Positions 39,827 through 53,074 are shown, numbered from the stretch's first letter. The stretch: DNA of 64,000 nucleotides from Acidimicrobiales bacterium (GCA_052326605.1 JBKQMB010000044.1:862-64861), one strand, 5' to 3'. The notes: generated from the letters alone by a model not told the origin. Translations and numbers: made by a program.

Positions 39827-40819
39827 CTACGACCCCGTCCCGCCCCGGGCTCCGGGGCGGCGATCCGCCGGTAGGGACAGACCGTCGATGACGGCGCCCT
39901 CCCTGAGCCCCCATTCGCTGACCACCAGGCCCTGCAGGCCCAGGTGCTCCACCAGTGTGGAGAGCACCACTGCGCCGATGGGAAGCAGCGGTGCCCGGCG
40001 GGCCTGGATGCCGGGCAGGGCCAGGCGGCCTCCGAGATCGAGGGCGGCCAGCCGCTCGGCCAGTTCGTCGAGCTGCCCTGCAGGCAGCTCGACCTGGTTG
40101 ACCTGGAGCGATGACGCGGAAGCGGGTGGTGGTCGGTGCAGGCCCATGGCCAACCGGGCCAGGGCGCGTACGGTCCCCCCGCTGGCGATCACCCGCCCGG
40201 TTGCCGAAGGATGGCGGCGGAGCATCTCGAGGATGGGCTCGGCCCGGGACGTCGTCGCCTCCCTGATGGCCAGGCGGTCATCGGGGGTCAGCACTTCGCC
40301 GGTCTCCATCTCCCCTTGGATCCGGGCCGTCCCGAGGGCGACGCTGGCGACCGCACACACCTGGTCGACGGTCCCGATGCCCGCCTCGAGGCTCCCGCCT
40401 CCGAGGTCGAGCCCCAGCACCGGGTCGTGGCCCACCCACACCCCGGCGCGCTGCCCCAAGAAGCACAGGCGCGCCTCCTCCTCGCCACTCAGCAACGTGA
40501 CCTGGTGACCCAGTACCCGCTCGAGCCGGTCGAGCAGCCCACCTCCGTTGCCGGCGTCCCTCAGTGCGGCCGTGGCCATCGCCACCACCACGTCGGCTCC
40601 GGCGTCGTCGGCCGCCACCCGTAACCTGCGGACCGTCCGTACCGCTGCCGCCGCCCGGTCGGCGGGGACGTCCCCCGTCCGCGCCACCTCGGTGCCCAGG
40701 TGGAGGAACGAACGCCTGCGCAGCACCGGATCCAGCCGACCGTCGCGGGACGCGTCCACCACCATCAGGTGGAACGAATTGCTGCCCAGGTCGAACACGG
40801 CTACTCGCACGGTGGGCAT
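39827..40819 (-). CDS. ppx: Ppx/GppA-family exopolyphosphatase
   Basis: VAVFDLGSNSFHLMVVD...DLGGGSLE motifs. The ATG is at 40819. The maximal ORF runs on into the tRNA remnant and was rejected. Confidence 0.85.
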   Translation of the reverse strand: MPTVRVAVFDLGSNSFHLMVVDASRDGRLDPVLRRRSFLHLGTEVARTGDVPADRAAAAVRTVRRLRVAADDAGADVVVAMATAALRDAGNGGGLLDRLERVLGHQVTLLSGEEEARLCFLGQRAGVWVGHDPVLGLDLGGGSLEAGIGTVDQVCAVASVALGTARIQGEMETGEVLTPDDRLAIREATTSRAEPILEMLRRHPSATGRVIASGGTVRALARLAMGLHRPPPASASSLQVNQVELPAGQLDELAERLAALDLGGRLALPGIQARRAPLLPIGAVVLSTLVEHLGLQGLVVSEWGLREGAVIDGLSLPADRRPGARGGTGS

Positions 40820-40911
40820 CGGCGTGACGCTATCCCGTACGGCGGGGTCGGGGGAACGCCGCCTGTCCGGTGGCCTACGCTGTGATCCGGCGGCGCGGGA
40901 TGGCGTCGCAA

Positions 40912-40950
40912 CGGGAAGTAGCGCAGCTTGGCAGCGCGCCTGCTTTGGGA
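40912..40950 (+). repeat. attL: orphan 5' half of tRNA-Pro(UGG) (positions 1 to the end of the anticodon loop)
   Basis: CGGGAAGTAGCGCAGCTTGGCAGCGCGCCTGCTTTGGGA is identical to 50871-50909. The sequence after 40950 is unrelated to a tRNA. Confidence 0.9.
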
Positions 40951-41099
40951 CTAGCCAGACGTGAGCGCTGTGCTGACCTGCGGCTGTGCAGGTCGGATGC
41001 AAGCGATCCTCGTGGTGTTATCCGCTCAACTTTCACCGCTGTCGCCCTGAACATTCCCCCACGATCCCCCTTGCGCCTCGCAAACGGTCAGGGTGGGGG

Positions 41100-42752
41100 T
41101 CAGGTGCGGGCGTCCTCAGCCGCAGCGAAGTCTGCCTCGACGCTCTCGTTGTCCTCGACCAGATCCATCAACTCGCGGAGCGTCGTCACCGGCAGGGCGT
41201 CCCGGGGCCAAGACTCCGTGTAGCCGTCGAACTTTCCGCCATCGGTGCTCCCATCCGGTTGGATTCCCCGGTCATGGAGCGCCTTGAGGATGGATGTCTC
41301 CCAGGCCTTCGCCAGGTTGCCATCCATCGGACCTCTCAGGTCCAGTAGGTTCCACCCGCCCTTCTCGTGCTGGGACAGTCGCGACTTCGGATCGTTTGTT
41401 ATGCCAATCTGAGTTAGCCCCCAAGAGGGATGATCCAACAGATAGAGCCAGCCCCTCGCCGACGAATCAAAGCCATGCTTGGCACAACGTGGGCAGCCGT
41501 TTCCCGCTAAGCGATTGTTACCGGGGGCTTGCCACTCGTGATCCGGTCCTTCCGGGCACTTCCACCAGAGTCTCGTGTGGGTTCCCGCGACCACATCGGC
41601 GGGAGTCAGGTCGCCGTTCTTCGTCGGGTGGAACTGGGCGGCAAGCTCCGGGAAGTTGGCCAGGCTGTTGGTCACCGACACCTGGAATCCTGCGCAGAAG
41701 GGGCAGCCGCTTCTGTAAACACGCCTGTTCCCGGTGGTTTGCCACTCGTGGTCCGGTCCCTTCGGGCACTTCCACCAGAGCTTCTTCACGGTTCCCGCCA
41801 CCACATCACTGGGGTTCAGGTCGCCGTTCTTCGTCGGGTGGAACTGGGCGGCAAGCTCCGGGAAGTTCGCCAGAGTGTTGGTCACCGACACCTGATAGCC
41901 AGCGCAGTAGGGGCAGCCGCGTCTACGGCCTACTCGGCCATTGCCGGTGGCTACCCACTCGTGGTCCGGTCCTTCCGGGCACTTCCACCAGAGCCTCGTG
42001 TGGGTTCCGGCCGTTACATGTGCGGGTGTCAGGTCGCCGTTCTTCGTCGGGTGGAACTGGGCGGCAAGCTCCGGGAAGTTCGCCAGACTGTTGGTCACCG
42101 ACACCTGATAGCCAGCGCAGTAGGGGCAGCCCCATCCACTCATACGGCCGCTCCCAGGCGCCTCCCACTCGTGGTCCGGACCCTGCGGGCACTTCCACCA
42201 GAGCCTCCTGTTTGTTCCCGCCACCACATCGGCGGGGGTCAGGTCGCCGTTCTTCGTCGGGTGAAACTGTGCCGCTAGCTCCGGGAAGTTCGCCAGGCTG
42301 TTGGTCACCGACACCTGGAATCCTGCGCAGAAGGGGCAGCCGCTTCCACTAACACGGTTGCCTCCGGTGGCCTCCCACTCGTGGTCCGGTCCCTCGGGGC
42401 ACTTCCACCAGAGCCTCCTGTTTGTTCCCGCCACCACATCGGCGGGGGTCAGGTCGCCGTTCTTCGTCGGGTGAAACTGTGCCGCTAGCTCTGGGTAGTT
42501 GGCCAGGCTGTTGGTCACCGACACCTGTCTGCCCGCGCAAGCGGGGCAGCCGCTTCCATTAATGCGGTTGTTCCCGGGGGCTTGCCACTCGTGATCCGGT
42601 CCTTTCGGGCACTTCCACCAGAGTCTCGTGTGTGTTCCCGCGACCACATCGGCGGGGGTCAGGTCGCCGTTCTTCGTCGGGTGCCACTGAGCCGCCAAGT
42701 CAGGGTGGGTGACCGCAAGGTTGTGAGTCTCAGACGCCCTGGCACCGCCCAT
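41100..42752 (-). CDS. Six-module zinc-ribbon (DUF4379-like, CHCC) array fused to a GIY-YIG-superfamily-like C-terminal domain
   Basis: Six repeats of HPTKNGDL...LWWKCPxGPDHEW...GCPxCAG...NSLANFPELAAQF. The tail reads GWLYLL...QIGITNDPKSRLSQHEKGGW. Confidence 0.85.
   Translation of the reverse strand: MGGARASETHNLAVTHPDLAAQWHPTKNGDLTPADVVAGTHTRLWWKCPKGPDHEWQAPGNNRINGSGCPACAGRQVSVTNSLANYPELAAQFHPTKNGDLTPADVVAGTNRRLWWKCPEGPDHEWEATGGNRVSGSGCPFCAGFQVSVTNSLANFPELAAQFHPTKNGDLTPADVVAGTNRRLWWKCPQGPDHEWEAPGSGRMSGWGCPYCAGYQVSVTNSLANFPELAAQFHPTKNGDLTPAHVTAGTHTRLWWKCPEGPDHEWVATGNGRVGRRRGCPYCAGYQVSVTNTLANFPELAAQFHPTKNGDLNPSDVVAGTVKKLWWKCPKGPDHEWQTTGNRRVYRSGCPFCAGFQVSVTNSLANFPELAAQFHPTKNGDLTPADVVAGTHTRLWWKCPEGPDHEWQAPGNNRLAGNGCPRCAKHGFDSSARGWLYLLDHPSWGLTQIGITNDPKSRLSQHEKGGWNLLDLRGPMDGNLAKAWETSILKALHDRGIQPDGSTDGGKFDGYTESWPRDALPVTTLRELMDLVEDNESVEADFAAAEDART
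41478..42710 (-). repeat. Six in-frame tandem 210-bp repeats (70-aa zinc-ribbon units; the last unit is truncated)
   Basis: The periodicity can be read in both the DNA and the protein. It includes a perfect 95-bp match between 42187-42281 and 42397-42491. Confidence 0.9.
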
Positions 42753-42804
42753 GAAGTGATGTTACCGAGGGGAGCAGTCGCGATTCCTCACCCCAATCCC
42801 AGGT

Positions 42805-43176
42805 TTACGGAATGCGTAGCGAGAGATGGAGCGCCAGGGCTTCGTCCACCTGATCCATGACCGCCGTTGGAAGAGTGTTGATCAAGTTCCCAAGGCGTTC
42901 CTTGGCCACTGTCAGAAGTTGGCCGCAGTAGATAGTCCCACCTTGCTGGTCTAGAAGGTCAGGAGGAAGAGACACATTCTGCGGGTACTGCCTCCGAGGG
43001 ATGGTGTGAGTGATCGCCACGACCGTCACCACCGATCCAAACTCATTGCCTACATCGTTAGACACGACCAGAGCCGGACGCTCGCCTGCCTGTTCGGAGC
43101 CTCGCGTGGGCGAGAAGTCCACCGAATACACTTCGCCGCGACGAGGAGGAATGGGCACCGACGCAGGGTACCGCAC
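42805..43176 (-). CDS. mazF: Type II toxin, PemK/MazF-family endoribonuclease
   Basis: RGEVYSVDFSPTRGSEQAGERPALVVSND...VVAITHT...GTIYCGQLLTVAKERL is a MazF/PemK signature. It has a GTG start at 43176. Confidence 0.9.
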   Translation of the reverse strand: MRYPASVPIPPRRGEVYSVDFSPTRGSEQAGERPALVVSNDVGNEFGSVVTVVAITHTIPRRQYPQNVSLPPDLLDQQGGTIYCGQLLTVAKERLGNLINTLPTAVMDQVDEALALHLSLRIP

Positions 43177-43183
43177 CCCTATT

Positions 43184-43456
43184 TCAGTAGGGGTTGTCCA
43201 TCGACTGGATTGCGGCCGGGGCGGCGAACTCGGCGATGGCGAGTGATGCCGCTGCCTGCTCCTCGTAACCTTGACGCAGGAGAATGACCTTCCACATTGG
43301 CATCCCGGGAGGGGCCTTGCGCACTGGCACGGTCATAGTCGTCCCTGCGAAGCTCGCCCGAAGATAGGCGCTGGTCACTCGCGCAGAAGTTGCCTCGTTG
43401 ATCCCGGAAGGGGAATAACCGTCGGGATTCGTCGCCACTAGTTCGGTGACTGTCAT
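43184..43456 (-). CDS. Hypothetical 90-aa protein in the antitoxin position (no recognisable MazE/AbrB, RHH or HTH motif)
   Basis: The ATG at 43456 overlaps the DUF3467 stop (ATGA). Its stop is 7 nt before the mazF GTG. Third codon positions look coding. The alternative frame 43179..43493 is Arg/Ser/Asp-rich and less protein-like. Confidence 0.55.
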   Translation of the reverse strand: MTVTELVATNPDGYSPSGINEATSARVTSAYLRASFAGTTMTVPVRKAPPGMPMWKVILLRQGYEEQAAASLAIAEFAAPAAIQSMDNPY

Positions 43457-43773
43457 TGTGGCTCCTTTCCGGCATTCGGCCCAGGTCGCTCATTAGCCGC
43501 CATGGCTTTCATGGCATCTTCTCGCAGGCTGACATTCGTTGCCAACGCCCTCAACATGTCATCGACGACTGTAGGCGGAACCTTGATGCGCGCCACCACT
43601 CGGGCAGGAACATTGACCACCGATTCGCCAACCTGAGACTGCGGCAGTCCAGTGACCATGAAATCCAGCGTGAACTCGTGCAGGGTGTGCCAAACGCCTA
43701 TGAAGTTGGCGTAGATGTTCGGCAGGTCGTCCGGCACTTCGATTTGGAAGTTCGTGGTCGGTTCCTCAGGCAT
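43453..43773 (-). CDS. DUF3467-family protein
   Basis: NFQIEVPDDLPNIYANFIGVWHTLHEFTLDF...ARVVARIKVPPTVVDDMLRALATNV fits the DUF3467 pattern I recall (I.I...YaN...v.Hs..EF.lDF ... R..m.P..ak.l..aL). The ATG is at 43773. Confidence 0.75.
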   Translation of the reverse strand: MPEEPTTNFQIEVPDDLPNIYANFIGVWHTLHEFTLDFMVTGLPQSQVGESVVNVPARVVARIKVPPTVVDDMLRALATNVSLREDAMKAMAANERPGPNAGKEPQ

Positions 43774-43868
43774 GACTGAACCATCGTTACACAGGTCAGC
43801 CTCACCAGGCTTGTCAGCGAGGGCCACATCCCCCAGCCTGAACGGTTGCGGCCACGCCAGCCGGGCTG

Positions 43869-44522
43869 TCAGGCGGTCGCGGCGAGTACGTCCAGAGAAA
43901 CTGAGCCGATGACAGCCCTGACCGTAGAAGCGTGCCACCTTCCGCCTCGGGCGGTAGGTATTGCCTCGGCATTCAGATCGTCGGCGACAGCTCGCAGGGA
44001 ACGGCCAGCTGCCCTCTCGGCGGCGATGCGGAGGCGCACGCCCTCGGCCAGCTCGACTGGGCGACCGAGACGGACACCACGGGCCTTCATGGCCTGCATG
44101 GCCTCGGAAGTCCGCTGGCCGATGATCCGGCGCTCCCACTGAGCTACGGAGCCGTAGATGTTGGCCATCAACTCGCCGGTCGGGGTGCTGGTGTCTACGT
44201 CTACGTCAAGGGCCACAAGCGACCAGCCGCCCCGCTTGGCCCGCTCAACCAGGGTGGCGAAATCCCGCACCGACCGGGACAGCCGGTCAAGTTTGGCGAC
44301 GGCCAGCACGTCAGCCTCGCCCCGGTCGAGGCGGTCGAGGGCGTCGGTCAGGGCCGGGCGGTGGATGTTGCTACCCGAGCGGCCCTCGTCGGTGTGGCTG
44401 CCCACCAGCTCCCAGCCACGGGCGTCGATGGCCTTGCCGATGGTGGCGGCCTGGGCCTCCAGTCCGTTGCCGGTGTCGGCCTGCTTGTCAGTGCTGACTC
44501 GGTGATAGGCGATCACTCTCAT
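43869..44522 (-). CDS. Small serine recombinase (resolvase/invertase family)
   Basis: MRVIAYHRVSTDKQ (catalytic Ser context), VAKLDRLSRS, and a C-terminal HTH (GRSLRAVADDLNAEAIPTARGGRW). Confidence 0.92.
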   Translation of the reverse strand: MRVIAYHRVSTDKQADTGNGLEAQAATIGKAIDARGWELVGSHTDEGRSGSNIHRPALTDALDRLDRGEADVLAVAKLDRLSRSVRDFATLVERAKRGGWSLVALDVDVDTSTPTGELMANIYGSVAQWERRIIGQRTSEAMQAMKARGVRLGRPVELAEGVRLRIAAERAAGRSLRAVADDLNAEAIPTARGGRWHASTVRAVIGSVSLDVLAATA

Positions 44523-44561
44523 GTGCCTAGTGTACATAAAAGGTTCCCATCTTGTACAGGA

Positions 44562-44699
44562 TGGGCAGGGGTGGGCGTGCCCGCGGGCGCTCAGCGGCGT
44601 CGGGGGTGATCGTGCTCTGAGCTTGTGGGCAACGGTGGGCGCTCAGGTGGGCATGCCCGCGGGCGGCGGGTCAGGTGCCCAGTGGGCAGGTGTGGGCGT
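44562..44699. repeat. Nested direct repeats with a palindromic core, upstream of the serine recombinase gene
   Basis: GGTGGGCGTGCCCGCGGGCG (44570-44589) matches GGTGGGCATGCCCGCGGGCG (44646-44665). Each contains the palindrome GCCCGCGGGC. TGGGCAGGGGTGGGCGT (44562-44578) matches TGGGCAGGTGTGGGCGT (44683-44699). Confidence 0.6.
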
Positions 44700-44708
44700 C
44701 TGGGCGAT

Positions 44709-45359
44709 CTACTTCACTTTGCCGAGAATCCGCACCGCAGTTGTGTTGTAGTAGGCGAGTTGCCAGTTCCCGGATGAGTCTCCGTAAGCCATCAGACGAC
44801 TTTGTATCTCGCCTGACGGTCCCGCGGTGTCGAACCAGTTGAGGTCTGCTCCTGGAGTAGGAGTGGATAGGACCAGCCAGTAGGTGGTCGAAGGCGAGAG
44901 GACGGGGCGGTCAACTGATCTGAACGAGTAGTTCTGTCCGTTCCAGTCTGTCGTGATCCTCGGTATCGAGATTTGGTCCAGCACCTGGCTGGCGTTGGGC
45001 TGACCACCTTGGTCGGGCACTAGGAGAAATACGGCAGTGTCGTTGGCTGCGCCGAATCTCCCCGAGAGCGGAGCCAGGTATTTGGTTACCTTGATCGAAC
45101 TGCCGGGGGGAGTGACGAAAGACAGCGCTACAGAGGCATTTCCGCCTACTGATCCGACCGTCTGTGACCCTCCAGTGATGTAGTAGTTGTACCAGTTGAC
45201 GCCGTTGTTGGTGAAGTAGTTGTCGTAGACCGTGGCGACTCTGGACGGACTCTGCGCCGCCCTAGCGGGGCCAGACAGTGATCCGAGAGCCAGGACGCTG
45301 GCCGCGACGGCAACCCCAACTAGCAGGATTACGGCTCGCAGGCGCTTTGGGTTTCTCAT
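44709..45359 (-). CDS. Secreted hypothetical protein (signal peptide; Asn/Ser/Thr/Tyr-rich beta-type sequence)
   Basis: MRNPKRLRAVILLVGVAVAASVLALGSLSGPARAAQ signal sequence, with AAGGA upstream of the ATG. The GC content is clearly lower than that of neighbouring genes (by eye). Confidence 0.7.
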   Translation of the reverse strand: MRNPKRLRAVILLVGVAVAASVLALGSLSGPARAAQSPSRVATVYDNYFTNNGVNWYNYYITGGSQTVGSVGGNASVALSFVTPPGSSIKVTKYLAPLSGRFGAANDTAVFLLVPDQGGQPNASQVLDQISIPRITTDWNGQNYSFRSVDRPVLSPSTTYWLVLSTPTPGADLNWFDTAGPSGEIQSRLMAYGDSSGNWQLAYYNTTAVRILGKVK

Positions 45360-45501
45360 TGGGGGGTCCTTTTCCTTGGGCGGCCCACTCCAGCAGCGAG
45401 CCGGAGATGCGCCCGCCCCCTCTCCACCGGCACCTCCTGCATGAGCAACGGTACGCCGGTACCTGGACCGTCAACAGGGCCAAAGGGCACAACCCGGCGC
45501 T

Positions 45502-45557
45502 GTCATCCCTGCTGTCATCCGACCTCCGTTGTCGCCCCGTCATCCCTGGTGTCATCC
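45502..45557. repeat. Four GTCATCC heptamers arranged as two 19-bp direct repeats (operator- or iteron-like) in a divergent intergenic region
   Basis: GTCATCCCTGCTGTCATCC (45502-45520) and GTCATCCCTGGTGTCATCC (45539-45557). The heptamers are 12 bp apart within each pair, and the pairs are 37 bp apart. Confidence 0.6.
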
Positions 45558-45687
45558 GGTCGGTCGGGGGGCCAAAAGCAACCGCCCTACTTGCAACCCA
45601 ATCGGCGAATCCGCTAATGCTCCTCGGTCCTCGGGTCGATAGCGAGATGAAGGGAACCGCGGCAGGGGCGAAAGCGGAGCGAAGAAG

Positions 45688-46554
45688 ATGAGCGACACAT
45701 TGCAGGGACCTGGGTGGTGGCAGGCGTCCGACGGCAATTGGTACGCCCCCGAACTGCATCCCGACTACTCGCCTCCCAAAGCGCCCAGTCCTCCGCAACC
45801 ACCAGAAGTGCCCAATCTTCCTCACGCCACAGCGCCCGCAGCGCCCGGAGCGCAGGGGGCCAATACACCGCCGATACCAGGGTGGTGGCAGTCAGGCGAT
45901 GGTGGTTGGCATCCGCCACAGCCACCGTCTCCCCAGCCTCAGCCGCAGCCAACGTATTCACAGCAACCCACTCAGGCTTTCTCTCCCAGTCAGGAGAAGA
46001 AGTCGCGAACAGGCCTAACGGTCGCTCTCGTCGCGGTACTGGCGCTCTTGGTCGTTGGGGTGATTGCGGCCATCGCAGTCTCGAAGAAAAGCGGGCCATC
46101 GACGACGCCAACCTCAGCTCCTGCGGCAGCAAACACGTCCCCAACTTCGGCTTCCGCCCAGGCTGCTGCGCAAGCTTTTCTTGTGGCATTCAACAACCTC
46201 AACACTGCATCAAACGCTGATTCGGCACAACTCAACGCGAACATGCAGAGCGCGAATCCGGAACCAGTGGCTGCAACTGCCACTATCAACAGTTGGATCG
46301 CTAGCAGCCAGACATTCGATAGAGCGATGGGCTCCATTCAATTCCCCAGCGCCCTTCAATCCGACGTTCAACAAGTGATGTCGGCGAGTGCTGCCTTTCA
46401 GTCGGGCCTGCAACAACTCGGTGCCAACACGGACAACATCAGCAACTACAACTCGGCATTGTCCTCGCTGACCCCATTGAAGGCGAACTTAGTCGCAGCC
46501 ACCAGTGTGTTGGGCGAGGCACTTGGATTGACAAAAGCCACCACGTCTCCGTAG
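45688..46554 (+). CDS. Single-pass membrane protein with two N-terminal GWWQxxDGxW motifs, a Pro-rich linker and an Ala/Ser/Asn/Gln-rich C-terminal domain
   Basis: PGWWQASDGNWYAP and PGWWQSGDGGWHPP (DUF2510-like short motif), a TM segment (LTVALVAVLALLVVGVIAAIAV), and GCGGAG 8 nt upstream of the ATG. Confidence 0.7.
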   Translation: MSDTLQGPGWWQASDGNWYAPELHPDYSPPKAPSPPQPPEVPNLPHATAPAAPGAQGANTPPIPGWWQSGDGGWHPPQPPSPQPQPQPTYSQQPTQAFSPSQEKKSRTGLTVALVAVLALLVVGVIAAIAVSKKSGPSTTPTSAPAAANTSPTSASAQAAAQAFLVAFNNLNTASNADSAQLNANMQSANPEPVAATATINSWIASSQTFDRAMGSIQFPSALQSDVQQVMSASAAFQSGLQQLGANTDNISNYNSALSSLTPLKANLVAATSVLGEALGLTKATTSP

Positions 46555-46760
46555 GTGAGGCTCCCAATCGAGGCCTCCTCGGCGCCAATGGCGGGGGAGC
46601 CAAAAACAATAACCCCTGACGCAACCGAATCGGGCCGTTTTCAATCGCCGCCGTGTGAACCAAAATCGGCGTTTTGGCAACCCCCTTTGGCAGAACCGCA
46701 TCGCCGCCGATCTGGCGGCTCAGGCGGGGTCAGTCACCACCGCGTCTGTGTCTACCGGAA

Positions 46761-46976
46761 TCAGGCGATCCCGGCCCGGCGCTCGACCAGCTCGGCGGCC
46801 TCAGTGAGCAAGGCGCACAGGTGGGCGTCCCGTGGGTTCGTGGCGGGCAGCGCGGCCAAGATGGCCCGGACCTGCTCGGCCACGTCGAGGGCCTCGGTCG
46901 CGGTCAGGCTGGCGAGGGGTCGGCCAGTGGCGGCCTCCACCACGGCGGCGAGGTCGTCGGGGTCCGGGGCGGTCAT
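46761..46976 (-). CDS. Hypothetical small protein (element backbone)
   Basis: The ATG at 46976 overlaps the stop of the upstream ORF (ATGA). The sequence is acidic and Ala-rich, with no recognisable motif. Confidence 0.4.
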   Translation of the reverse strand: MTAPDPDDLAAVVEAATGRPLASLTATEALDVAEQVRAILAALPATNPRDAHLCALLTEAAELVERRAGIA

Positions 46977-47224
46977 CGTCCACACGTCGGGCAGTGGGCC
47001 GAGGCGGCGGCCAGGAGGTCGAGCAGGTGAGCCGCGGCGGCGTCCTGGTCAGCCCGTAGACGGTCGAGCAGGCCGGTGTCGGGCGGCGGCAACAGGGCGG
47101 CGAGGTCGAGTGGTGGCCGCTCGGGCGGGGCGAATCGTTCGGGACATAGGCAAACCACACAGTGTTCCCGGTCGGACGGGTCAGTGGTCATGGCAGTGGT
47201 GTCCTCCACGTAGTTGTCCGTCAT
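46973..47224 (-). CDS. Hypothetical small Cys-motif protein (element backbone)
   Basis: CVVCLC ... CPTC. The ATG overlaps the stop of the upstream HTH gene (ATGA). Confidence 0.5.
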   Translation of the reverse strand: MTDNYVEDTTAMTTDPSDREHCVVCLCPERFAPPERPPLDLAALLPPPDTGLLDRLRADQDAAAAHLLDLLAAASAHCPTCGR

Positions 47225-47748
47225 GTCGTCGCCACCGGGGTCGGGCGGTCGGCCAGGTCGGCGGTCAGCTCGCGGCGCATCTGCTCACGATCATCGCGTT
47301 GTCGTGCCGCATCGGCGTCCCGGAACTCCTGTAACGTCGCCCACACTTCGGGGCCCGTGGGCATGATCCTGCTACCGGCCGGGATAGCATCGAGGTCGGA
47401 TCGACTCTCGGCCGGTGGGCTCAACACCCGGACCACGGCTAGGGCGTCGGTCAGCGATGCGTCGTCATCCAGACGGGACTCGACTACGGACAGGGCACGG
47501 CCCCGGATGCGGCGAGCGCGGTCGGCCTGCTCGGTCACCAGGACTGCCCGGTACTCGGCCAGAGCGTCCCGGAAGGTCGGATCGTGGTTGAACCATCGGT
47601 TGACGGCCTCCCGACTGACACCGGCCAGGACTGCCGCCTCAGTCTGTGACGACCCGGTGGCGAGGGCTTCTACGGCGGCCTGTTTCGCCGGGGTCAACTC
47701 GGCCACGGCATCGAGGACCGGCGCGTCGGTGTCATCGAGCGGGTTCAC
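47221..47748 (-). CDS. HTH-domain protein (phage small-terminase-like or regulatory HTH)
   Basis: LTPAKQAAVEALATGSSQTEAAVLAGVSREAVNRWFNHDPTFRDAL resembles the N-terminal HTH of P27-type small terminases and similar phage regulators. The assignment is tentative. Confidence 0.6.
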   Translation of the reverse strand: MNPLDDTDAPVLDAVAELTPAKQAAVEALATGSSQTEAAVLAGVSREAVNRWFNHDPTFRDALAEYRAVLVTEQADRARRIRGRALSVVESRLDDDASLTDALAVVRVLSPPAESRSDLDAIPAGSRIMPTGPEVWATLQEFRDADAARQRDDREQMRRELTADLADRPTPVATT

Positions 47749-47833
47749 GGCTAGCTCCCTCGGCGTGATCGGTCGTGATCCAGTGTGACACTGTGCGCGG
47801 GTGGCGGCTGCTGGGATCGAGGGTCAGGGGTCA

Positions 47834-48046
47834 TCATAGGTGCCGCCGGGTCCGCGTCCGGTGTGCGCGCACTCGACACGTCGTCGAGCAGCTCAGGGCG
47901 TCGGCCCAGGCGTCGGGGTCGAGCGGCTGGCCGCATACCTGGCACGTCCGAGGGCGTGGCCGTAGGTCATCCCAGAGAGCGAGCTGGGGATCGTCGGCGG
48001 TCGAGGTCTCCCCCGCCCCCGCGGGGGGGTCAGCCACCACGGCCAC
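47834..48046 (-). CDS. Hypothetical small zinc-ribbon-like protein (element backbone)
   Basis: CQVCGQPL...CSTTCRVRAHR followed by a basic tail. It runs in the same direction as its neighbours. Confidence 0.45.
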   Translation of the reverse strand: MAVVADPPAGAGETSTADDPQLALWDDLRPRPRTCQVCGQPLDPDAWADALSCSTTCRVRAHRTRTRRHL

Positions 48047-48185
48047 CAGCTACGGCGAGAGCGGCGTATACAGGCCTCTCGTCGGTCGATGGTGGCACCG
48101 TCGTGGCTTCCCAACAGAGTCCGAGGTCGAACGCCCTAACCATCGGACGGTCGGGCACTGGGTCTGACGGTCGCCATGCCCGGCG

Positions 48186-48986
48186 CTAGTCGAACTCGAG
48201 ACTCAGCCCACTCTCCCAATCCACGGTTGGCCAATCGCCCGCGGCGTCGTTCGCTGCCACAACTGCGGCACAGCAGGTCGGACAGAGACGCGGTCCCCAG
48301 TACGCCTCGACTAGACGTTGGTTGCTCCTTCCGCAGGAAGCGCATCTCGGTAGCTCGACCACCTCGGCCGCTCGATCCGACTCGTCGCCACCGGGCGCTT
48401 CTGTCTGAGGATCACCCACGGCAATGGGTTCGTGGTCGCTCAAGAAGGGGTGGCCGCTGATTTCTTCTCCACAGCCGCATCTCAGCCCATTGCTAGATAC
48501 CTCCATCCCTCTTTGCCGCCTTACCTCGTGAGCCGCCTCTATTCCCTGGTCGTTCGCGTCAGATTGCACAATCTCGACGCGGACCTGGCCCGAACTGGGC
48601 GCGAACTTGACGCCATCTGCCAGGGTCTGATTCGCGTCATCTGACGCCAACAAGGAACGGTTTCCGAGGTTCACCAGGCGGCCATGCTCGATGACCTTCA
48701 CCCGTCCTTCCGTGCCCTGATGAAACGGCACGACTGGCTCCAGTAAGCCAATACCCGCCAGTTGCACAACGACCTTCGTGACCGTCTTCCGGGAAAGCCT
48801 GGTGGCCGCAGCAAGGTCGGTGAGCGTTCCGGCCCATTCACTCGATCTGTACTCGGCCTGTATGGCCAACAGAAGAAAGACCAGTAGTTGGTTTGCCGTC
48901 AGATGGCGTTCTCTTGCGATGTCACATGCAGCGAACGGATCGACTTTGGGCCACTTCCACCTTAGCGAACCCCGTTCGCCGGTCAC
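48186..48986 (-). CDS. Winged-helix N-terminus plus C-terminal Cys clusters; candidate replication or regulatory protein of the element
   Basis: LTANQLLVFLLLAIQAE...LTDLAAATRLSRKTVTKVVVQLAGIGLLE (wHTH-like). The C-terminus has CGCG, CASCG and CPTCC. The GTG start overlaps the upstream stop (GTGA). Confidence 0.6.
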   Translation of the reverse strand: MTGERGSLRWKWPKVDPFAACDIARERHLTANQLLVFLLLAIQAEYRSSEWAGTLTDLAAATRLSRKTVTKVVVQLAGIGLLEPVVPFHQGTEGRVKVIEHGRLVNLGNRSLLASDDANQTLADGVKFAPSSGQVRVEIVQSDANDQGIEAAHEVRRQRGMEVSSNGLRCGCGEEISGHPFLSDHEPIAVGDPQTEAPGGDESDRAAEVVELPRCASCGRSNQRLVEAYWGPRLCPTCCAAVVAANDAAGDWPTVDWESGLSLEFD

Positions 48987-49243
48987 TTGCCTGTCCCCCG
49001 CCGCCGACGCGCTCTAGCCGACTTCAACGCCAACCCTGTGAAGTACGCCTTCTTCGCCGCCTCGGCACGACGGTGGCGCTCTGCCTCAGGCAGCACCCCC
49101 TCAGGGTCAACCTGGCGGTCGAAACGGTCACGGAAGGCCGCCCGTGCGTTTGCAGTTCTGGCCGCCGGATCAGCCGTCCTGGACCAGGACACCTGAGCGG
49201 CGAGACGGCCACGCAAGCTCTGCTCGGCTGGTGACATCGACAT
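48983..49243 (-). CDS. Hypothetical basic protein (element backbone)
   Basis: 86 aa, Arg/Ala-rich with a basic C-terminus. It is co-directional with and overlaps the next gene. Confidence 0.5.
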   Translation of the reverse strand: MSMSPAEQSLRGRLAAQVSWSRTADPAARTANARAAFRDRFDRQVDPEGVLPEAERHRRAEAAKKAYFTGLALKSARARRRRGTGK

Positions 49244-49336
49244 GTAGAAGCAACCCCTTCGGGTGCTCCGGGTGCCGACGCCGGAGCGAAGCTTCTACCT
49301 GATGGCCTGGCGGGCTAGTAGTCGATCACCGTTGTA

Positions 49337-49810
49337 CTAGACGCGGGGCGGGCGAGGCAAGGAACTGGCCCGCCTGACTCGTACGAGGGGTGGCGGCTCC
49401 GACATCGCCAGGCTGCAGATGGCCGACACTGGCTCTGCGAGGGGGGTGAAGTGAAGAAGAGGCAGCAGTCGTTCGGATCGCTCCATTTCGGATTCAACCG
49501 GCTGCCAGCGGATCGCGCTACCCAATGCAGCGGCACGGTCCGCGATTTGACGGACCCGAAGTTGGTCCAGAACCACCCGCCCATTGCAGCGCACGTTGCT
49601 GCACGCACACTCGCAGAAGCTGAGCGGTGCGCTCTCGCTGACTTTGGACGGATACCAGCGGCGGTCTTCGACATCCCGTTCGCTTCGCTGAGCGATGCCA
49701 GGTGACCGGAACTCGACTGACAACTTGCCACCCGGAGCCTGGAAGACACGGGCGAGTATCCGAGCGCAAGATGGACAGCCAACCTCGGCGACTTGAGATT
49801 CGGCAGTCAT
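49337..49810 (-). CDS. Cys-rich hypothetical protein translationally coupled to the integrase
   Basis: The ATG at 49810 overlaps the int stop (ATGA). Motifs are CPSC ... [10 protein letters not shown]. The alternative frame 49315..49782 looks less protein-like. The C-terminal third is doubtful. Confidence 0.45.
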
Positions 49811-50844
49811 AGCCGGTCCCCTGGTGAGCGGGTCTGGTATGCGGCTCTGGCTCGCTCGTCGGCCGCGCTGGCGCCGTACCGATTCAACATCTCCCTCGTA
49901 CGCCAGCCAACCAGCCGCATGAGGTCGCCCTCATTGCCGCCGTCCGCCAACCAGCGGTGTGCGAATGAGTGCCGGAACAGATGGGCATGGATGTGGCCGA
50001 TTCCCGCCTGCTTGCCCCTGCGCTCCACGATTGAGCGGATACCCGGTGTACCCAGCGGGCCGCGTATACCGAGCCACAAGCTGTCACTCGTGGCCGCGTG
50101 GGGATCCCGTGCCCGAGCGTGGATGTAGCGGTCGAGCGCCCCAGCTGTCTTTGCGCCGAACGGACAGGCCCTGGGCCGCCTCCCCTTGCCCATGACGATG
50201 GCCACCCTCGCATCGAGGTCAACGTCGTTGACGGTGAGATTGGCCAACTCAGACAGCCTCATGCCGGTGTCGAGAAACAGCCGGAGCACAGCAGTGTCCC
50301 GGCGGTCCTCCATGCTCTTGCCCTCGCAGGTAGCAAGCAGTCTGCGCAAGTCCTCGTCGGTCATCACCGGCACCGGCACGTCGGGTACCCGTGGCGGCTT
50401 CATCTTCTCCATCGGTGAGCGAGTGATTTCGCCCCAATCGACCAGGAAGTTGAACAGGGCGGTCAGCGCCCGGTAGCGGTTGTTGGCGGTGGCAGGAGCC
50501 TTGGTCTCTACGAGACGCTCGATGAATGACTCGACGTGCTCCCGGCCGATCTTGGTGACCTCGGTGGGCATCCCGGACTCGCGAAGGAAATCGAGGAGCT
50601 GGTTGGCGGCCTCCGAGTAGGTGGCGACGGTCTTGGCGCTCTTGTTCGCCGCCCGAAGACTGCGCTGGAATGACGGGATCAGCGTGGCGAGGTCGCCTAC
50701 ACTTTCGGTGGTTACCGGGTTCAAGGAAGTGCCTTTCCTGGGCCGGAAGCCCGCTGTAGTGGGAGCGTTGGCTCGCTCGCCATTCCAAAGGTTATCCGCT
50801 GAGGGAGCGTTGTGCAAGCAGGCTCCCAAGGCGGAAAACCACAA
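49807..50844 (-). CDS. Tyrosine recombinase / phage-type integrase
   Basis: SAM-like N-domain ([16 protein letters not shown]...[13 protein letters not shown]) and catalytic-domain motifs (TGMRLSEL ... HLFRHSFA ... LVGWRT...MLNRY). The true start is probably internal to the maximal ORF. Confidence 0.93.
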
Positions 50845-50870
50845 AAGGCCAGTTCACTGGCTATTTTTAC

Positions 50871-50944
50871 CGGGAAGTAGCGCAGCTTGGCAGCGCGCCT
50901 GCTTTGGGAGCAGGAGGTCGCGGGTTCAAATCCCGTCTTCCCGA
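50871..50944 (+). tRNA. tRNA-Pro (anticodon UGG); its 5' 39 nt form attR
   Basis: Acceptor stem CGGGAAG/CTTCCCG, D arm GCGC-AGCTTGGCA-GCGC, anticodon stem-loop CCTGC-TTTGGGA-GCAGG, T arm GCGGG-TTCAAAT-CCCGT, discriminator A. CCA is not encoded. Confidence 0.95.
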
Positions 50945-50981
50945 CACGGCGGATGGCGCTCGCGGCGAACGGCCGCGGGTC

Positions 50982-52781
50982 TCAGGCGCTGACCTGCAGG
51001 CCGAAGGCGGCGATGAGGTCCGCGGCCGGGAGCGGCCTCGAGAAGAGGAACCCCTGGGCGAAGTCGCAGCCGAGGGACCGGAGCGCGTCCAACTGCTGTT
51101 CGGTCTCCACGCCCTCGGCCACCACCTTGAGGCCCAGCGCATGGGCGAGGTTGATCACCGCTGACACGATCTCCTCGCCCTCGCCGCCGGCACCGGCGCC
51201 GAGGTCCTCGACGAAATTGCTGTCCACCTTCAGGATGTCCAAGGGAAAGCGCCGCAGGTAGCTGAGCGACGAGTAGCCGGTGCCGAAATCGTCGATGGCC
51301 AGCAGCACCCCGATGTCCTTCAGGGCGCGCAGGACCAGCAGGGCCGAGGCCGCGTCAGCCATCAGGGCGGTCTCGGTGATCTCGAGGGTCAGGTGCCCGG
51401 GGGGCAGACCGGTGCGGCTGAGGATCCCCTCGACCGTGCTCACGATGTGCGGGTCGTCGATCTGGCGGGCCGAGATGTTCACCTCCACCGTGCCTCGCGG
51501 TCCGGTGCGGCCCTCGCGCTGCCAGTCGCGGAGCTGATGACAGGCCTCCTCGAGCACCCATGCCCCGATCGGGATGATCAGCCCGCTCTCCTCGGCCACC
51601 GGGATGAACCGGCAGGGGGAGACCAGGCCCTGGGAGGGATGTTGCCATCGGACGAGCGCCTCCATGCCCACCGTGGTGAGCTCCCCGAGTTCTACCACCG
51701 GCTGGTAGTGGAGCATCAGCTCGCTGCGCTCGAGGGCCCGGTGCAGCGAGTGCTCGGTGGTCATCCGATCGACGACCTCGATCCGCATGGACTCGCCGAA
51801 GGTCTCGACCCTCGATCCTCCCCGCTGCTTGGCCCGGTACATGGCGGCCTCGGCGTTGGACAACAGCGTTGACGGGTCGTCGACCCCGAACGTGTTGAGG
51901 GCGACACCGACCGACGCATCGAGAAACACCTCGGACCCTGCGACGTCGAACGGCTCGGCCAGCGCCAGGCGCGCCCGCTCGATGAAGGCCGACGCGACGT
52001 CCCCGACCGGACCGTCCCCGCTCCAAAAGAGGGCCAGGAATTCGTCTCCGCCGAAGCGGGCGAAGAGCTCGGCGTCGCCGGCGGCGCGCCGCAGGCGCTC
52101 GGCGACCGCAGCCAGCACCCGGTCACCGGCCTCGTGGCCCACGGAGTTGTTGATGGCCTTGAAGCGGTCAAGATCGAGCAGCACCACCGCAACCGCACCT
52201 GGGATGCCGCCCGCCGTGGCCACCGCACGCGCCAGCCGCGACTCGAAATGCACTCGATTCGGCAGTCCGGTCAGCCTGTCGTGCAGGTCCGCATGGGACA
52301 GCGGCTCACCAGAAGATGCACTCCCCCGGCCGTCGTAGAGGAAACCGGCGATGCCGCCGGACGCCCCACTACCGACGGTGAACAACAGCCCGTCGGCGAC
52401 GATCCGGTGCCCCTGCTTGTGCAGCAACTCGACCTTCCGCCGGACACCTTCGCCCGAGCGCACCCCCCGCCACCCGAGTTCGGCGATCTCAACGTCGAGC
52501 GCTCCCTTGCGCGCCCGGACGAACGGAGACGGTCCGATGCACTCGGGGAGGGCGGTCTGGGTGATTTCCCTACCGATCACCTCGTGGCGCCTCCACCCGA
52601 GCACCTGCTCGGCACGCGGGTTCCACTGGGTGACCATGCCGGCACCGTTCACCTCGAGGTAGGCGTCGCGGCAGAAGGCGACCAGCTGGGCAAAGCCATC
52701 GGGTCCGACCGGCAACCGGGGCGATGGCCCCCGTTTTGGCTTGCTCACTCTTGCCCGCGCTTGGTCACGGCGAACCGCCAC
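50982..52781 (-). CDS. PAS-GGDEF-EAL c-di-GMP turnover protein
   Basis: PAS-like region ([23 protein letters not shown]), GGDEF ([11 protein letters not shown]) and EAL ([10 protein letters not shown]...DDFGTG). The start is uncertain: there is a GTG at 52781 and the maximal ORF reaches 52976. Confidence 0.88.
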
Positions 52782-53074
52782 CGTCCGAGATGATCGATCA
52801 TCATGTACCGTCCCACCCGGTTTCCGTGGCACACGACCCCACAGGGAGGGCCGTGTCGTTGGGGAGTCATGGTAGGCACTCGCCTGCCCCACTTCAAGGA
52901 TTTGCGGTCTGCGGCACCACCTGATGGAAGTCGTCGACGCGCCGCCGCGACCGGGTGTCGCCGCGGACCACCCCACTGGGAGCAGCCCGCGCCATCTCGT
53001 TCGACCTTCCGTGTACCGTGCCTGTCGTGGTCGTGGTCACGGGCAAACTGCAAAAGGAGGCATGGGACAACCAG

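Follow-up and report, generated by a model that had tools for sequence, protein, structure and literature searches.

The locus described here raises the question of what becomes of a tRNA gene when an integrating element takes over its 5′ half, and of the promoter from which such a gene could then be transcribed. It lies in a stretch of 64,000 nucleotides (nt) from an Acidimicrobiales bacterium (GCA_052326605.1, JBKQMB010000044.1:862-64861). The whole 64-kb stretch is referred to as the window, and all positions are counted from its first letter. Within the window, a segment of 9,959 bp very probably represents an integrative element that entered the local tRNA-Pro(UGG) gene by means of its own Xer-like tyrosine integrase, in reversed polarity.

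Element boundaries, integrase and insertion site

As reported in an initial annotation of the window, the 39-mer CGGGAAGTAGCGCAGCTTGGCAGCGCGCCTGCTTTGGGA was present in two exact copies, at 40912-40950 and 50871-50909, both on the + strand. No further copy at ≤ 3 mismatches was found in the window, and none was found in 100 shuffles. The sole tRNA detected in the 64 kb by ARAGORN was tRNA-Pro(tgg) at 50871-50945 (+ strand), which scored 68.2 bits in Rfam against a gathering score of 29; neither ARAGORN nor Rfam gave a tRNA at 40912-40950. Alignment likewise agreed with the initial annotation in that the right copy runs into a complete tRNA and the left copy is tRNA-like only through the anticodon loop. 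The left copy parts from the tRNA directly after the last loop base, where CTTTGGGA is followed by CTAGCC and, in the tRNA, by GCAGGA (the loop itself reads TTTGGGA in both). A 39/39 identical 5′-terminal tRNA fragment is therefore found 9,959 bp upstream of tRNA-Pro on the same strand. This left copy was designated the attL core (40912-40950, + strand), the displaced 5′ half (nt 1-39, through the anticodon loop) of the chromosomal tRNA-Pro, and the rebuilt intact gene (50871-50945, + strand) was designated attR, with nt 1-39 (50871-50909) element-derived or shared and nt 40-75 chromosomal. In this chromosomal 3′ half, the T-stem at 50931-50935 reads CCCGT and that of every relative CCCGC, a change of a G-C pair to G·U.

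The lower G+C content (GC) of the interval, previously judged by eye, was borne out by computation (63.8% inside, or 0.638, versus 69.6%, or 0.696, in the remainder of the window); of 69 windows of equal size taken outside the element, none had a GC below 67.9%. The flanking genes were also as first described, with a ppx/GppA phosphatase gene on the left (39827-40819, − strand; Pfam Ppx-GppA, E = 1e-43) and a PAS-GGDEF-EAL gene on the right (50982-52976, − strand; Pfam). The locus carries the Islander signature of an intact tRNA and a direct-orientation terminal fragment 2-200 kb apart with a tyrosine integrase gene in the interval (49807-50724; Pfam PF00589 plus SAM-like domains), and in keeping with the Islander configuration rule the 5′ fragment (40912) is located upstream of the tRNA gene (tDNA; 50871, + strand).

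The integrase gene (int) occupies 49807-50724 on the − strand and encodes 305 amino acids (aa) from a TTG start, with its 5′ end facing the tRNA. Pfam Phage_integrase and SAM-like domains confirmed that the open reading frame (ORF) noted initially is real; its start at 50844, 26 bp from the tRNA, was not upheld. Integrase homologues (6282 at E < 1e-20, typically 304-306 aa) align from the start equivalent to the TTG at 50724, which makes 50724 the likely start and places the divergent gene 147 bp from the tRNA. The protein is full length and its catalytic motifs (R..HxxR..W..Y) are conserved. Its domains are the SAM-like core-binding domain and the catalytic domain only, and these, a length of ~300 aa, the lack of an arm-binding domain and the best NCBIfam matches liken it to XerC/XerD. 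As judged by model scores, it is a XerC/XerD-like protein and not a true Xer protein (143 bits versus a cut-off of 335.15 and 137.2 versus 329.6 with the NCBIfam XerC/XerD models, both far under the cut-offs); it also differs in being located on a mobile element beside a tRNA att site rather than at a housekeeping locus. No close relative was found in isolated phages, the best match there being 37% identical (Streptomyces phage Kromp), and some relatives occur on IMG/VR viral contigs.

Two motifs occur once in each end of the element. The left arm (P′; 40951-41026, + strand) holds CTAGC, GAGCGCTGTGC (40963-40973), an inverted repeat (CTGACCTGC/GCAGGTCGG, 40973-40981 and 40988-40996) and GTTATCCGCT (41017-41026), and the right arm (P; 50791-50815, + strand) holds GTTATCCGCT (50791-50800) and GAGCGTTGTGC (50805-50815). 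In the window, the exact decamer GTTATCCGCT occurs only at these two sites, one per arm, as does GAGCGNTGTGC (40963-40973 and 50805-50815), and all copies are within ~110 bp of the att cores. An independent element in locus L024 has a like arm layout with homologous arms, including CTAGC straight after the loop, and most reversed loci have a motif GTTATCCGCTG-N5-GAGCG-N-TGTGC in the interval that separates int from the tRNA. The arm motifs are probably binding sites for the recombination machinery. The pair GTTATCCGCT…TGTGCAAGC was also considered as the -35/-10 of an int promoter and was dropped, given that the hexamer lacks its final T in several loci and that the far arm carries the motif too; it is more likely to be a site of protein binding. 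The expected junction of an attP circle would be GGCTATTTTTAC + 39-mer + CTAGCCAGACG, and the repaired attB would be GGCGTCGCAA + full tRNA.

A ppx-based scan of species-representative genomes assigned the window to Acidimicrobiales and supplied the relatives; their ppx orthologues, in metagenome-assembled genomes (MAGs), were 76-87% identical. Six of them (L001, L002, L003, L005, L006, L007) have an empty site: upstream of ppx, at a distance of ~100-170 bp, is an intact and divergent tRNA-Pro(tgg), at the position where the window has the orphan 5′ half only. The gene order GGDEF-EAL, tRNA-Pro, ppx, large GGDEF gene is conserved, and the GGDEF-EAL orthologue is located beside tRNA-Pro wherever contigs extend far enough (L002, L003, L005, L007). 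No element proteins are encoded at the ppx/tRNA-Pro site of the relatives. A second assembly (L176) holds the same element at the same site, with an int 99% identical. The initial annotation had named three outcomes that would speak against an element, namely a dispersed 39-mer, relatives with the intervening genes and no repeats, and no empty site in any relative together with no excision junction. The 39-mer has no further copies in the window, the element genes are not encoded at the relatives' sites, and the six sites are intact, all of which supports the element interpretation. The element and its boundaries are well supported.

Two further relatives have older, decayed insertions with the same polarity as the window element. 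In L004, 1.5 kb separates the intact tRNA from ppx, which is adjoined by a decayed 5′ half (nt 1-34, 94% identity), and an internally deleted integrase remnant abuts the 5′ end of the tRNA; in L008, the abutting integrase remnant is frameshifted and is accompanied by ~5 kb of foreign DNA. These same-site insertions span 8386-9910 in L004, where a sulfotransferase-like gene is also present, and 4860-10000 in L008. Either the tRNA-Pro site has been used repeatedly or one old insertion has eroded differently in each lineage.

Given that L004 and L008 show such insertions decaying in place, the window element might itself be an immobile relic, integrated as described and no longer able to excise, and then a fixed scar rather than a mobile element to which tRNA expression is actively coupled. 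Genes for excision, replication and transfer were not recognised, and the mosaic cargo includes a second, serine recombinase. This account is nonetheless somewhat unlikely, since the repeats are still 39/39 identical, int is full length with its catalytic residues conserved, the arm motifs are intact on both sides, and small unannotated ORFs beside int could include an excision factor.

Polarity across the integrase family

The reversed polarity of the window element is secure. The ppx (native-promoter) side keeps tRNA nt 1-39 only, and the intact gene has element DNA upstream. The initial annotation had called this polarity unusual; the reversal, with the 5′ half displaced beside the native promoter, stands, but the configuration is rare yet documented and hence less novel than had been implied. 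Reversed (5′-displacing) integration has been described previously (PMC6563490, PMC4383910, PMC8371274), and the Islander survey contains 159 islands with a 5′ fragment versus 3760 with a 3′ fragment (159/3919, ~4%; PMC4383910, Table 1).

Integrases 77-83% identical to that of the window (P0006, P0021, P0035) each have a divergent tRNA-Pro(tgg) whose 5′ end is 145-170 bp away. A metagenome profile scan yielded 80 loci, and nearly all of those with upstream sequence have a tRNA 60-250 bp before the int start. When polarity was tallied (including the window, L012, L013 and L015), int and tRNA were divergent (reversed) at 36 loci and co-directional (canonical) at 26, with many tRNA species represented; given that the profile query was a reversed member, this 36:26 ratio carries a bias and does not estimate frequencies. 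In a neighbor-joining (NJ) tree, reversed and canonical members mostly form separate clades with few switches; reversed polarity characterises a large integrase clade. The sister integrases L043 and L078 in this tree both target tRNA-Asn(gtt), the former reversed and the latter canonical (nt 28-75), and may represent a recent polarity switch at one target.

Duplicated segments and unintegrated forms were used to locate the exchange. The independent 4.2-kb element of L024 (tRNA-Pro, reversed) carries an exact repeat of nt 1-39 at a distance of 4.2 kb, and canonical elements repeat nt 31-75 (L037), 33-75 (L070) and 28-75 (L078). Unintegrated attP forms with a 5′ half only were found for tRNA-Met (nt 1-40, L098) and tRNA-Gly (nt 1-41 in L100 and L101, nt 1-40 in L171), and in L042 the attP form holds a tRNA-Pro 5′ half that ends exactly at TTTGGGA. 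That the 9.7-kb L098 contig is circular is suggested by its first 25 nt, which recur ~127 nt before the end. Many attP forms of canonical relatives hold 3′ parts starting at nt 27-33. The window attP, read from attL and attR, carried tRNA nt 1-39, an arrangement seen directly in the attP forms of relatives.

Reversed members thus share tRNA nt 1 to ~39-41 with their target, and canonical cousins share nt ~28-33 to the 3′ end. Because the anticodon loop is the sole segment common to both kinds of identity block, these block limits argue strongly that strand exchange would take place there, within the 7-nt loop. As in the known anticodon-loop att class, the anticodon stem-loop bounds the identity block of the window, whose final position is the last base of the loop.

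Two features of the metagenomic loci are noted separately. Many of the L016-L095 contigs start ~200-300 bp upstream of int, at or in the tRNA, which fits assembly breaks at a duplicated tRNA segment and would make such elements hard to place in MAGs. On the 37.9-kb contig of L063, a canonical attP-like tRNA-Val fragment (nt 31-73) is located 90 bp before int, and a full tRNA-Val(tac) is present elsewhere.

Transcription of the rebuilt tRNA gene

The putative native promoter of tRNA-Pro is the block CCTACGCTG (40874-40882, + strand), with a -10 of TACGCT (40876-40881), which is invariant upstream of tRNA-Pro in 8/8 aligned relatives. If this block is indeed the promoter, it would now drive the orphan 5′ half only. 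All relatives also share, without variation, GTGACGCTATCC (40824-40835, minus-strand reading) a short way upstream of the ppx start in the same intergenic region; its ppx-strand reading is GGATAGCGTCAC, a TAGCGT -10 ending ~7 nt before the ATG at 40819. This suggests that the ppx mRNA is leaderless and shares a ~90-bp divergent control region with tRNA-Pro.

A TANNNT is found 15-47 nt upstream of other host tRNAs in the same set of genomes, and none was present within 90 nt upstream of the rebuilt tRNA-Pro in the 4/4 loci checked (L012, L013, L015, L016). The 230 nt upstream of the tRNA in the window hold two TANNNT candidates. The first, TATTTT (50862-50867), was rejected: it ends 3 nt before the tRNA, so that transcription would start inside the tRNA with no leader, and it is not conserved in L008. 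The second, TACACT (50698-50703), is the -10 of a putative element-borne promoter, GTCGCCTACACT (50692-50703, + strand), which is antisense in int codons 8-9 (AGT GTA, Ser-Val) and 167 nt upstream of the tRNA. In sequence, GTCGCCTACACT comes close to the putative native promoter block GGCCTACGCT.

The position of the hexamer was compared among loci by an alignment-anchored analysis of the N-terminal int codons. A tRNA-directed TANNNT within -8 to +4 nt of the aligned int codon was present in 28/36 reversed versus 2/26 canonical loci, and within 120 nt in 35/36 versus 9/26. Across sub-clades the hexamer takes the forms TACGCT, TATAAT, TACAAT, TAGAAT, TAGAGT, TACGAT and TAAGAT, and in several loci it has textbook partners (TTAACA-17-TACAAT in L088 and L079, TTGACG-17-TAGAGT in L076 and L083, TGnTATAAT in L060). 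At the Ser-Val sites, valine is encoded by GTA in 13 of 16 genes, whereas GTA makes up 7.9% of the valine codons in the rest of these genes (binomial 2e-12), and serine is encoded by AGY in 14 of 16. Precisely these codons preserve T-12, A-11 and T-7.

The chance that the rebuilt tRNA is transcribed from an element promoter with the -10 TACACT antisense in int codons 8-9 is put at slightly better than even. Comparative data favor the earlier suggestion that the tRNA promoter would be situated in or against the int 5′ region. In the proposed mechanism, transcription from within the int codons would yield a ~160-165-nt leader that would be removed by RNase P, and the tRNA-ward transcript, crossing the int upstream region head-on, may, as a speculation, dampen int expression. 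Immediately before the tRNA is a 6-bp hairpin (-9 kcal/mol; 50847-50868, no strand assigned) that has T5 behind it when read on the + strand and CTTTTG when read on the − strand. The hairpin might shield int from read-through originating in the host GGDEF-EAL gene, or it could weaken the distal promoter.

Several observations weigh against this reading of the locus. For the element, no excisionase was recognised among its proteins, and no far-end 5′ fragment was found within 10 kb in L012, L013 and L015, from which those elements were taken to be longer than the fetched flank. For the promoter, the hairpin and T5 between it and the tRNA could terminate transcription, a leader of ~165 nt is long for a tRNA, and the window copy of the hexamer has no notable -35. 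Polarity and the -10 motif both track phylogeny, so that the contrast of 28/36 versus 2/26 does not represent independent events. An E. coli-type promoter scan gave no sites on either side of the element, the scan being too strict for an actinobacterium of 70% GC; alignment of relatives and mapping of TANNNT were used instead for this reason. Both current mobility and the activity of the promoter are putative.

The hairpin with its T5, the long leader and the fact that the hexamer faces the int upstream region would also suit a different role. The element and its polarity would then be real, but the antisense hexamer would produce an antisense RNA or interference controlling int, and the tRNA would be transcribed from another start (read-through or a non-canonical promoter) or be dispensable by way of another tRNA-Pro(UGG) copy outside the 64-kb window that the tRNA search covered. 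We regard this as unlikely. The hexamer is largely confined to reversed loci and near-absent from canonical cousins, which would gain equally from control of int, and it copies the -10 block of the native tRNA-Pro. Many reversed loci have no TANNNT besides it in the 230 nt preceding the tRNA, and in the window the only other one is the TATTTT that would start transcription inside the gene. Far less probable than either alternative, indeed close to negligible, is the absence of any site-specific integration, with the 39-bp repeat arising from local duplication or gene conversion and the intervening DNA arriving by another route: beyond the fact that a repeat alone is no proof of integration nothing favors it, and the repeat ends exactly at the anticodon loop, an integrase gene keeps the canonical spacing to the core, the empty sites of relatives are clean, and dozens of homologous loci and free attP forms have the identical architecture.

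Extending the preferred reading, an element-borne promoter for a tRNA captured by its 5′ half, to the whole family gives a broader proposal that is tentative, with a likelihood a little short of even. A large clade of Xer-like integrases (Acidimicrobiales and uncultured metagenomic or viral contigs) would be built to capture the 5′ halves of tRNAs (at least 11 tRNA species), each with a replacement promoter antisense in the first ~ten int codons that is held by rare synonymous codons. The tRNA, essential to the host, would then be transcribed head-on into int, and the host would depend on the element for it, with the integrase kept quiet when integrated.

Cargo genes and related systems

Genes in the element were called by frame analysis and GC at third codon positions (GC3) together with Pfam, PHROGs and NCBIfam, and the interval proved to be non-housekeeping, as had been stated initially (a zinc-finger endonuclease-like protein, MazF, a serine recombinase, helix-turn-helix proteins and others). 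All of the genes are on the − strand except where noted. Nearest to attL, 41100-42752 encodes a treble-clef zinc-finger protein of 550 aa in which six near-identical ~64-aa DUF4379 repeats (Pfam, E = 1e-118, 6 stretches) are followed by an endonuclease-like C-terminus (phrog_681 endonuclease, E = 7e-47). It adjoins a MazF/PemK-type toxin gene (42805-43176; Pfam PemK_toxin, E = 6e-29), and the pair might be a defence or addiction module. A DUF3467 protein follows (43453-43800; Pfam, E = 2e-7), and then a small serine recombinase of the resolvase/invertase type (43869-44537, 222 aa; Pfam Resolvase, E = 1e-39). A 55% identical homologue of the latter is present in the reversed-polarity element L095 (6380-6982), and the gene may be a nested mobile unit or an invertase. 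The remaining genes of this part are a secreted protein with a choice-of-anchor R domain (44709-45359; NCBIfam NF041539, 35.9 bits versus a cut-off of 30), a proline-rich predicted membrane protein on the + strand (45688-46554; ORF and translation, with no family match) and a helix-turn-helix protein (47221-47748; weak helix-turn-helix and small-terminase-like matches, GC3 0.78).

Closer to int, a 266-aa protein with a weak replication-initiator-like N-terminus (48186-48986; phrog_8102, E = 1.5e-4) is also present in L176. The small conserved protein phrog_2842 (48983-49243, 86 aa; E = 1e-9) has tblastn matches in 10 other int loci (e.g., L123, L103, L171 and L077) and is a candidate excision or regulatory factor. 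The start of a 157-aa ORF (49337-49810, as defined by its coordinates) overlaps the int stop by 4 nt; a 41% identical homologue is the second gene after int in the int-proximal block of L015 (11613-12041).

Using Pfam, PHROGs and NCBIfam, no capsid, tail, portal, large-terminase, replication, or transfer/conjugation module was recognised in the element, and only weak small-terminase-like helix-turn-helix matches were obtained, which points to a small island or mobilisable element rather than a full prophage. No conserved backbone beyond int and the phrog_2842 protein could be defined, and the other cargo is almost without homologues in related elements. Among these, L012 and L013 carry a TrwC-type relaxase, L177 carries a D5-like primase-helicase, and other close integrases are located on phage-like IMG/VR contigs; the integrase-attP module seems to move between element types.

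Reversed-orientation tDNA islands were reportedly described by Zhao & Williams in 2002 (J Bacteriol 184:859), according to papers that cite this work. The window element resembles such islands in that a tyrosine-integrase element in a tRNA gene displaces the 5′ part, restores it from its own DNA and cuts the gene off from its own promoter; it differs in the clade-wide polarity and in the candidate promoter inside the int codons. A further difference from the reversed islands of Islander is the Xer-like integrase family. Islander deliberately filters Xer-type proteins, and this reversed family may therefore be under-counted there.

The pSAM2-type elements of actinomycetes, which integrate at tRNA-Pro, carry and restore the 3′ part of the tRNA. 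An actinobacterial host, a tRNA-Pro target, a size of ~10 kb and a tyrosine integrase are shared with the window element, but the integrase of the latter is of the short Xer-like type and the polarity is opposite; no pSAM2-type Rep, FtsK-like Tra or Xis genes were found in it using the same three databases. The anticodon-loop att class (site 'A' of Islander; ascribed to Williams 2002 by citing papers) likewise has an identity block bounded by the stem-loop that holds the anticodon, and the 7-nt loop as the likely region of overlap, with the palindromic stem CCTGC/GCAGG on its two sides in attB. In the window, however, the identity runs from the loop to the 5′ end and not the 3′ end, and attP keeps the 5′ stem arm only, the other arm being CTAGC in the window and in L024.

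A parallel for the use of a 5′ half as attB is known from archaea. Integrases of the pTN3/TKV4 type in Thermococcales use the tRNA 5′ half as attB, as in the window, and integration separates the restored tRNA from the promoter it had before, its expression reportedly coming from the promoter region of the integrase (PMC5495485, PMC8371274); according to a review, use of the 5′ half is 'seldomly encountered in bacteria' (PMC8371274). Those integrases are of the SSV-type 'suicidal' kind, in which attP is inside the int ORF and int is split upon integration, whereas the int of the window is intact, with the core 147 bp upstream of its start, and belongs to a Xer-like recombinase in a bacterial host.

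No description of a clade-wide trait or of an int-embedded promoter was found in the literature, in which Zhao & Williams 2002 and Williams 2002 were represented by works citing them, and both aspects may be new. The polarity alone would not surprise a specialist; the family-level pattern and the candidate antisense promoter with its codon constraint would be worth testing. Such elements may escape island finders that filter Xer-like recombinases or look for 3′ fragments.

After integration of an element, a tRNA gene nearly always stays under the promoter it had, and the reversed class hands control of the tRNA to the element; the tRNA-Pro in question may be single-copy and essential. With its empty sites, decayed sister insertions and free attP forms, the locus is a clean bacterial example that points to a whole integrase clade. 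If a promoter is indeed located within the int codons, this would be a compact overlap of coding and regulatory information, and a system in which to study how a mobile element might become hard to lose and regulate its own integrase by convergent transcription.

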